DNA from: Dictyostelium discoideum
Taxonomy: Eukaryota
Length of the DNA stretch: 64,000 bases
Reading direction: 5' to 3'
NCBI GenBank assembly: GCA_000004695.1
Contig: CM000153.2
Location: 160,001 to 224,000 of the forward strand
Positions 6,962 to 32,515 of the stretch are shown piece after piece. The notes under the pieces were generated by a model, which did not search any database, was not told where the DNA came from, and worked only from the letters and a program-made list of their open reading frames with translations. A program made the position numbers and the translations under genes. Positions within the stretch are counted from its first letter, which is position 1, and the number at the start of each line of letters is the position of its first letter.

Positions 6962-7135
6962 AATATGAAAATAATAAAAACAAAGCAAAAAAAAAACAAA
7001 AAAAAAGAATTTGTTTTATTAAAAAATTTAATTTCCATGGACCAACCTTTGTTAATTGTCCTTTTGTTGGTGATTATTCTTTTAATTTATTAACTCTTTA
7101 TTATTATTATTATTTACAATTTTATATTTATAGGT

Positions 7136-31610: not shown

Positions 31611-31977
31611 TTTATTTATTTATTTGTTTGTTTTTTGGGAAATTAAAAATAAACAAAAAAAAAAAAAAAAAAAACGAATAATTTTTTTTAAAAAATTTTT
31701 CTTTTTTTTTTTATTTTGTTTTTTTAATTTTTTATTTTTTATTTTTTATTTTTTATTTTTTATTTTGGGAAAGAGTTAGTAAATTGTAATAATATATTTA
31801 ATTTTATAGAATTTTGAATACTTATTTTTATTATTACTTATTATAATAATAAAATTTTTTAAAATTTTTTTTTTTTTTTTATCTGATAAAAAGTTTTAAT
31901 TATCACTCATTTTTTTTATTTATCTAATTAATAGATAGACCCACTATTGCCAAGAAATTGTGTTAACATACAATAAT

Positions 31978-32095
31978 CAAGAAATAAAAATGTTGATAAA
32001 CAAACACGCCATCAAATATTAGTTCATTTTCTTTTTCGGAATGGATGTTAAGGTTGGTCAATCAACATCCATTCCAAAAAGTAAATAAACTATAT
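31978..32095. other. Nested inverted repeat (about 115 bp, two-level palindrome) in the spacer upstream of the esterase D gene
   Basis: Outer arms are aaacaaacacGCCatcaaatat (31981-32002) and atatttgatAGTgtgtttgtt (32074-32095). Inner arms are ctttttcggaatggatgtt (32029-32047) and aacatccattccaaaaag (32062-32079), around a short loop. It is GC-containing, whereas the surrounding spacer is nearly pure A/T. Confidence 0.5.
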
Positions 32096-32226
32096 TTGAT
32101 AGTGTGTTTGTTAATTAATATTTTTATTTGCCTAATTTTTTTGTTAATGACGCCCCCCTGTCTCCTCCCCCTTTGAATATTTGTTTAAAATTCATCTCAA
32201 TAATAATAAATATTACAGTGAAAATA

Positions 32227-32266
<40 letters not shown>

Positions 32267-32515
32267 TACAAAGACAAAAAAAAAATAAAGGGAGTATATT
32301 GCTTAATAATAAAATATATTTAGTAAAAGAAATGATTATTTAAAAGGAAATATTGGAAGATTTAATTTTTTTATAATTTTTTTATTTTTTATTTTTTAAT
32401 TTTTTTTATTTTCAAGGGGTGCTCCCTTCAAATGTTTTTTTATTTTTTTTATTTTTTTTTATTTTCATTTTTTTTTTTTTTCAAAAAGACACATTATTAA
32501 AAAAAATTAACAACA

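Follow-up and report, generated by a model that had tools for sequence, protein, structure and literature searches.

A long hairpin-forming palindrome between ctu1 and esterase D of Dictyostelium discoideum, probably a young lineage-specific insertion

Is a long palindrome that lies between two divergent housekeeping genes of Dictyostelium discoideum a gene for a hairpin RNA, the footprint of a DNA transposon, an element of the promoters around it, or a piece of DNA that arrived recently and is now decaying? The palindrome was noticed in a stretch of 64 kb (hereafter the window), which has a GC content of ~22% and many pseudo-palindromes made of A-runs and T-runs. The spacer that contains it, put at about 900 bp in the original prediction, measured 905 bp (31611-32515) and shared 99.8% identity with an AX4-type chromosome assembly (GCA_054883475.1). 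On the minus strand to its left is ctu1 (exons 31610-31284, 31209-30975 and 30866-30346), the spliced 360-aa product of which is the D. discoideum CTU1 protein, and on the plus strand to its right the esterase D gene (PF00756) runs from 32516 in three exons. Since the two genes are arranged head to head, the palindrome sits in an upstream region common to both; it is nearly central in the spacer, with ~371 bp separating it from the ATG of ctu1 and ~386 bp from that of esterase D. The GC content of the hairpin was 24%, compared to 14.5% for the remaining spacer, and it had been described as the most GC-containing thing between the two genes, a distinction that belongs instead to a C-rich tract around 32131-32180 with up to 50%.

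The element is a single imperfect palindrome of 148 bp (31982-32129), which as a single strand gives a hairpin of 66 pairs with a continuous stem interrupted by six single-base mismatches or bulges. Its left arm (31982-32049) and right arm (32064-32129) are complex sequence and not homopolymer, and they enclose a non-palindromic centre of 14 nt, AAGGTTGGTCAATC (32050-32063), predicted to form a 4-bp apical extension and a 4-nt loop in plus-strand RNA. Two inverted repeats, one inside the other, had been reported here, and both were located. The outer repeat, AAACAAACACNNNATCAAATAT, occupies 31998-32019 in the left arm, with its reverse complement, bearing one mismatch, at 32092-32113 in the right arm; the inner repeat (32031-32049 and 32064-32081) has as its core an exact 12-mer, GGAATGGATGTT, at 32038-32049 and 32064-32075. 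Folding does not separate them into the two levels of different repeats that were proposed, however, but joins them in one unbroken imperfect stem of 66 pairs, and the extent first given, which ended at 32095, misses the right outer arm. Beyond 31982-32129 no inverted-repeat symmetry was found in the flanks. A 5' flank (31945-31981) was present or absent together with the hairpin: it was found in three D. discoideum-type assemblies, and no homolog was detectable in the sister species D. citrinum. Within this flank, just 5' of the hairpin, there is a GTTAAC-centred mini-palindrome, ATTGTGTTAACATACAAT (31957-31974), which was identical (100%) in all D. discoideum-type strains, of which there are three, and missing from D. 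citrinum.

Folded as an RNA of 151 nt, the plus strand reached -59.8 kcal/mol (z -13.2) and the minus strand -57.9 kcal/mol (z -12.1), where z-scores were computed against dinucleotide-preserving shuffles; none of 200 shuffles was as stable on either strand. The expectation of a long hairpin was borne out by these values, and the comparison with shuffled controls that had been suggested as a check clearly did not return the weak energy that would have spoken against it. With wider flanks the folds were -63.8 kcal/mol (plus) and -61.4 kcal/mol (minus) at 37 C and -85.2 kcal/mol at 22 C, and a fold with DNA parameters gave -41.7 kcal/mol (z -9.5). Such stability is exceptional for the region: among 5110 sliding 150-nt folds on both strands of the window (mean -17.0, sd 7.3 kcal/mol) the hairpin ranked first and second. 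The next-best fold (2601-2750) fell within a long (ATT/GTT)n trinucleotide repeat (2540-2960) that resembles a coding homopolymeric amino-acid tract and, with a z-score of only -3.9, is no structured RNA.

Loci for comparison were collected through the CTU1 protein cluster and comprised an AX4-like assembly (L001), two genomes labelled D. discoideum (L004, GCA_054859355.1, and L005, GCA_054859385.1), two of D. citrinum (L002 and L003) and one each of D. purpureum (L006) and Polysphondylium violaceum (L007); a search by the ctu1 exon-1 ORF found no further strains on record. The head-to-head order of ctu1 and the esterase gene was kept in D. discoideum and D. citrinum but not in D. purpureum and P. 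violaceum, which were rejected as outgroups for the spacer as the neighbours of ctu1 differ there. The base of the comparison is five genomes from two species, with no syntenic outgroup. L004 and L005 differed from AX4 by 10-12% in ctu1 introns and by 4-5% at third codon positions, a distance that is ~40% of that between AX4 and D. citrinum and large for a single species, and they may represent a cryptic lineage or be mislabelled.

The palindrome was recovered in four sequences, namely the window, L001, L004 and L005. The hairpin is no assembly artefact, being found again in an independent assembly of AX4 type and, in diverged form, in two others. In L004 and L005 it was found at the same place with 14-16 substitutions, three 1-nt indels and an insertion of 8 nt in the centre (32050-32063), which is the most variable part of the palindrome; on the plus strand these versions folded at -63.4 kcal/mol (L004, z -12.3) and -58.8 kcal/mol (L005, z -10.6), compared to -63.8 kcal/mol in AX4. 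The D. citrinum spacers were 577 and 591 bp long, ~320 bp shorter than that of D. discoideum. Their ctu1-proximal motifs aligned well, while the hairpin and ~37 nt on its 5' side were missing, and both ctu1 and esterase D do without the palindrome in this species. By local alignment neither arm had a homolog above shuffled controls in the D. citrinum spacers, and no comparable 150-nt fold was found in the two 8-kb D. citrinum loci. Of the central spacer, only GCCTAATTTTTTTGTTAAT (32130-32148), directly 3' of the hairpin, could plausibly be matched to D. citrinum (CCTACTTTTTTTGTTAAT), and the match was marginal, its score being equalled by 3-7 of 200 shuffles.

Several other features of the spacer differed in their distribution. 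Two TTTTGGGAAA motifs upstream of ctu1 (31627-31643 and 31764-31775) were invariant in all D. discoideum and D. citrinum spacers, amid AT-rich DNA that was variable around both, and are likely to be ctu1 promoter elements. The C-rich tract GACGCCCCCCTGTCTCCTCCCCC (32149-32171, G-rich on the ctu1 strand), set in spacer of 14% GC, was present in all three D. discoideum-type strains with a C-run of varying length and absent in D. citrinum; it might be a G-box or C-rich promoter element. A small GC-rich mini-palindrome, CAAGGGGTGCTCCCTTC (32413-32429), constitutes a second small palindromic indel within the spacer, found in AX4 only, with a gap of 11 nt in its place in L004 and L005 and no counterpart in D. 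citrinum. Near the ctu1 ATG, a (TTTA)n/(TTTG)n microsatellite was ~70 nt longer in D. citrinum than in D. discoideum (3400-3500 of L002 and the equivalent in L003). No tRNA genes were found in the 64-kb window.

Selection on a hairpin can be sought both in the rate at which its sequence changes and in the way its pairs change. Between AX4 and L004/L005 the hairpin was 88-90% identical, as were the ctu1 introns, with other spacer segments at 82-95%. The immediate flanking blocks (31901-31985 and 32126-32200) were 93-95% identical, above the hairpin, and the first of these, which contains the 5' flank, was 94-95% identical between strains. Across the three sequences no constraint above the neutral rate was found, the divergence of the hairpin being that of the introns and flanking spacer. 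When the three sequences were aligned on the AX4 structure, 54 of the 66 pairs were invariant, 5 had changed on one side to a wobble and 7 were mismatched; compensatory changes on both sides were found in 0 of 66 pairs, a count that has low power with three sequences. Each substitution since the strain split added one more arm-to-arm difference. A transition in the stem appears as G.U on one strand and as A.C on the other, and ratios of G.U to A.C on the plus strand (3:3, 6:4 and 8:4 in the three strains) showed no significant strand bias. The plus strand was more stable than the minus strand in all three strains, the latter losing up to ~15 kcal/mol in the divergent strains, and this retention of plus-strand stability gives a weak hint of selection at the RNA level. 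Overall, the stem behaves like unconstrained DNA with a neutral substitution pattern, and nothing in the strains compared indicates selection on the sequence or the pairing of the palindrome.

The differences between the two arms also provide a clock. Arm-to-arm substitution divergence was 11.6% in AX4, 17.6% in L004 and 20.5% in L005 (identities of 88%, 82% and 80%), and at least four arm differences were common to all three strains. For ctu1 introns, divergence was 10-12% between AX4 and L004/L005 and 26-29% between D. discoideum and D. citrinum. Since arm divergence lies between these two intron distances and some differences are shared, we infer that the arms were last identical after the split from D. 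citrinum and before the strains diverged, which corresponds to ~1.1-2 times the age of the strain split and ~0.4-0.75 times that of the D. citrinum split, on the assumptions of a perfect palindrome at birth and no arm-to-arm gene conversion and with small numbers throughout. The palindrome was thus probably gained in the D. discoideum lineage after D. citrinum had split off, and an old element lost in D. citrinum would not fit this dating. Long palindromes are prone to deletion, though, and since the five genomes include no syntenic outgroup, an older palindrome that was deleted in D. citrinum is still conceivable.

With moderate confidence, we favour the explanation that the palindrome is a recent insertion, confined to the D. 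discoideum lineage, into a bidirectional promoter spacer, where it now decays neutrally. After the split from D. citrinum, a perfect or nearly perfect inverted repeat, its arms ~68 and 66 bp long, would have been inserted or generated in the spacer. Both arms have since gained point changes independently at the rate of the introns and neighbouring spacer, so that pairing slowly erodes. Its source may have been a foldback or MITE-like mobile element or, alternatively, inverted-repeat filler from repair or replication. The GC content of 24%, against 14.5% in its surroundings, suggests that it was imported and not made from local spacer. As the hairpin stands between two promoters that fire outwards, a read-through transcript would carry a hairpin that in size and stability is like those processed by DrnB, the Dicer-like enzyme of Dictyostelium. 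The palindrome may in this way be raw material for a new miRNA, and as a miRNA it is a candidate.

Such a candidate could already be a gene for a hairpin RNA or miRNA that annotation has missed, a young miRNA 'module'. Transcription by RNA polymerase II would begin ~90-100 nt upstream, at a G that follows the T-run, and continue through the palindrome, and the DrnB/RbdB microprocessor would cut the stem into ~21-nt duplexes for loading into Argonaute. Published D. discoideum miRNA hairpin loci are ~105-150 nt long and mostly intergenic (PMC6161686), and their normalised energies are ~-0.5 to -0.73 kcal/mol/nt, the criterion being a value below -0.2 (PMC6161686; PMC11014262 table). The palindrome agrees with these precursors in size and energy and is intergenic, as most ddi-miRNAs are. 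Normalised over 148 nt, its energy was -0.43 kcal/mol/nt at 37 C and -0.58 at 22 C, on the stable side of the published limit (PMC6161686); any 21-mer of the stem was >85% paired where at least 60% of the duplex is called for (PMC6161686), and unpaired runs within the stem did not exceed 1-2 nt. In published pri-miRNAs of D. discoideum the first nucleotide is a G that follows a T-rich run, and it lies ~100 nt upstream of the miRNA. On the plus strand here, a T16 run (31865-31880) is followed by a G at 31885/31893, ~90-97 nt upstream of the hairpin, and at the mirror position the minus strand has T31 (the A31 run at 32232-32262). However, T-runs and A-runs are ubiquitous in the genome, and the resemblance to a promoter is weak and applies to either strand. 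An AATAAA (32205-32210) precedes the A31 run by 21 nt, and T16 and A31 each lie ~100 nt from the hairpin; such a layout might represent promoter and poly(A) signals or the tail of a retroposed copy, but runs of this kind are common in the genome.

Evolutionary behaviour bears on the same possibility from both sides. Dictyostelium miRNAs are nearly all recent and mostly species-specific (PMC11014262), so that a lack of conservation does not exclude function, and some were gained or lost as whole intergenic modules, the spacer of the sister species being shorter (PMC11014262). The shorter D. citrinum spacer, which has no hairpin, matches this pattern of module gain and loss, and the better fold of the plus strand in all three strains would also suit a transcribed precursor. 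Against this, neither sequence nor pairing was constrained and no 21-nt block was significantly conserved. Extrapolated from one window, about one such hairpin per 64 kb would also imply hundreds genome-wide, compared to 27 known miRNA loci. Stem 10-mers covering most of both arms, in DNA or RNA letters, were absent from the supplements of Liao 2018 (PMC6161686) and Edelbroek 2024 (PMC11014262), the arm sequences had no match among the miRNAs in the portion of the Meier 2016 table (PMC4894637) that was compared, and the stem sequences had none in the main text of the Dictyostelium papers searched. Deep small-RNA-seq surveys with hairpin-aware callers do not report the locus, as far as the compared lists of 2016, 2018 and 2024 extend. 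The suggestion of a miRNA-like precursor therefore stands as to shape, size and energy, and fails to find selection on structure or a match in the portions of the published lists that were compared. Because the locus goes unreported in these surveys and lacks constraint, we consider a hairpin-RNA or miRNA gene possible but rather doubtful. A narrower version, in which a newborn locus is transcribed from the plus strand and diced by DrnB at a level too low or too imprecise for the published criteria, seems to us unlikely.

Compared with the known D. discoideum miRNA precursors (ddi-mir-1176/1177, 1178-1186 and 7095-7105, processed by DrnB and RbdB), the palindrome is alike in being intergenic and one long imperfect hairpin, in having comparable length and energy per nucleotide, and in being lineage-restricted with a shorter sister-species spacer and a T-rich run upstream. 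It differs in that its GC content is lower than that of the listed mature miRNAs, that its substitutions are as likely to break a pair as to keep it, and that it has no conserved miRNA/miRNA* block and does not occur in the published lists compared. None of 4227 Rfam models matched anywhere in the window at gathering thresholds; a permissive search brought up nothing but generic precursor models of plant miRNAs, all scoring below half of their cut-offs, the best being MIR2863 with 39.8 bits where the threshold is 94. In plants, inverted duplication gives rise to young MIR genes and hairpin-RNA loci, whose heterogeneous siRNA-like products precede precise dicing. The palindrome resembles them in its long near-perfect stem, recent origin and neutral drift, as well as in its generic sub-threshold matches to plant MIR covariance models, and differs in that no arm-like parent or target sequence occurs elsewhere in the 64-kb window.

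Two other kinds of gene were considered at the locus and rejected. A noncoding RNA gene might be driven by the DUSE, which we take to be [AT]CCCA[CT]AA located ~60 nt before the RNA start in Dictyostelium Class I RNAs, snRNAs and snoRNAs. The nearest candidate, ACCCACTA at 31939-31946, has one mismatch to this consensus and reads GCACACTA or ACACACTA in other strains, and the 11-nt motif of Class I RNAs, presumably CCTTACAGCAA, was absent from the ctu1/esterase D spacer. Across the hairpin, the frames that are open from stop to stop have 33 codons on the minus strand and 58 on the plus strand. Coding was rejected since these frames are short, have no ATG context and are broken by a 1-nt indel in other strains.

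Alternatively, the palindrome might be a copy of a miniature inverted-repeat or foldback DNA transposon, with the arms as terminal inverted repeats of a non-autonomous element. Such an origin is compatible with later neutral decay, and we consider it unlikely though far from negligible. It would account for the discrete presence or absence of the palindrome between close genomes (the window, L001, L004 and L005 have it, D. citrinum L002 and L003 do not), for a GC content above that of the surrounding spacer and for a compact palindrome of typical MITE size. There is also a precedent in D. discoideum, where miRNA hairpins derived from the transposon thug-S are already known (PMC6161686 and PMC4894637). 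Terminal inverted repeats are trivially present, since the whole unit is an inverted repeat, and do not discriminate. A transposon would be expected to leave other traces, however, and these were not seen: no further copy of either arm, nor a parent sequence, turned up in the 64-kb window or in ~57 kb of related sequence from seven Dictyostelid loci, and a scan of metagenome contigs with a 16-mer, too short a probe there, gave 120 chance matches, none of which extended beyond ~25 nt. The best flanking direct repeat was 6 bp, TGTTAA (31961-31966 and 32142-32147), a match of a kind that chance would be expected to produce ~2.4 times, and the junction on its right side also occurs in D. citrinum, which is without the hairpin. 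Moreover, the indel and the palindrome do not coincide exactly, as the block missing in D. citrinum takes in ~37 nt of non-palindromic sequence on the 5' side. Of the transposon footprint first proposed, what holds is an element present in the D. discoideum lineage and missing from the syntenic D. citrinum spacer; what does not is a second copy in the window or fetched loci, or a target-site duplication above chance. Set beside MITEs and foldback transposons, including thug-S, the palindrome is similar in being compact (~150 bp), present or absent among close relatives and of a composition unlike the local spacer, and different in being single-copy in the window and the seven Dictyostelid loci with no credible target-site duplication. 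At ~2.5 kb from ctu1 in D. purpureum is a gene (L006, 7176-7724) that encodes a dimerisation domain of the hAT family (PF05699), which shows that hAT-type DNA transposon sequences exist in group-4 dictyostelid genomes.

It is improbable, in our view, that the palindrome acts in cis as a DNA element within the divergent promoter of ctu1 and esterase D, for example through a cruciform that would bind proteins, insulate or have a role in replication. Negative supercoiling between two genes transcribed outwards would extrude the cruciform, and AT-rich palindromes with short centres extrude readily. The location of the palindrome almost exactly in the middle of the spacer and its stability with DNA parameters (-41.7 kcal/mol, z -9.5) would suit such an element. 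However, D. citrinum has the same head-to-head gene pair and no palindrome, the palindrome changes as fast as neutral DNA and is less conserved than its flanks, and the centre, at which extrusion would nucleate, is the most variable part with its 8-nt indel. A chance match in low-complexity AT-rich DNA or an artefact of assembly, which a window of ~22% GC rich in A-run and T-run pseudo-palindromes might bring to mind, can be dismissed given z-scores of -10 to -13, the best fold of 5110 windows, complex arms and four independent sequences.

Elements of this kind are already known, and a function for this one would be a candidate function only. If no small RNAs are made from it, the palindrome would be an ordinary lineage-specific insertion of little wider consequence, as well as a caution that an exceptional predicted folding energy alone is no sign of a functional RNA in this genome. 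As a young insertion, it offers a clean and datable case of how long hairpin-forming palindromes arise in AT-rich intergenic DNA and then decay neutrally, and such palindromes are thought to be the raw material of the fast-turnover miRNAs of Dictyostelium. If DrnB-dependent products were found, the locus would be an example of the 'gain of a module' by which new miRNAs have been proposed to arise in group-4 dictyostelids. Were it a true miRNA, it would offer both an internal clock, in the divergence of its arms, and an empty site in the sister species, and a newborn locus at this position would represent a datable de novo birth of a miRNA by module insertion in Amoebozoa.
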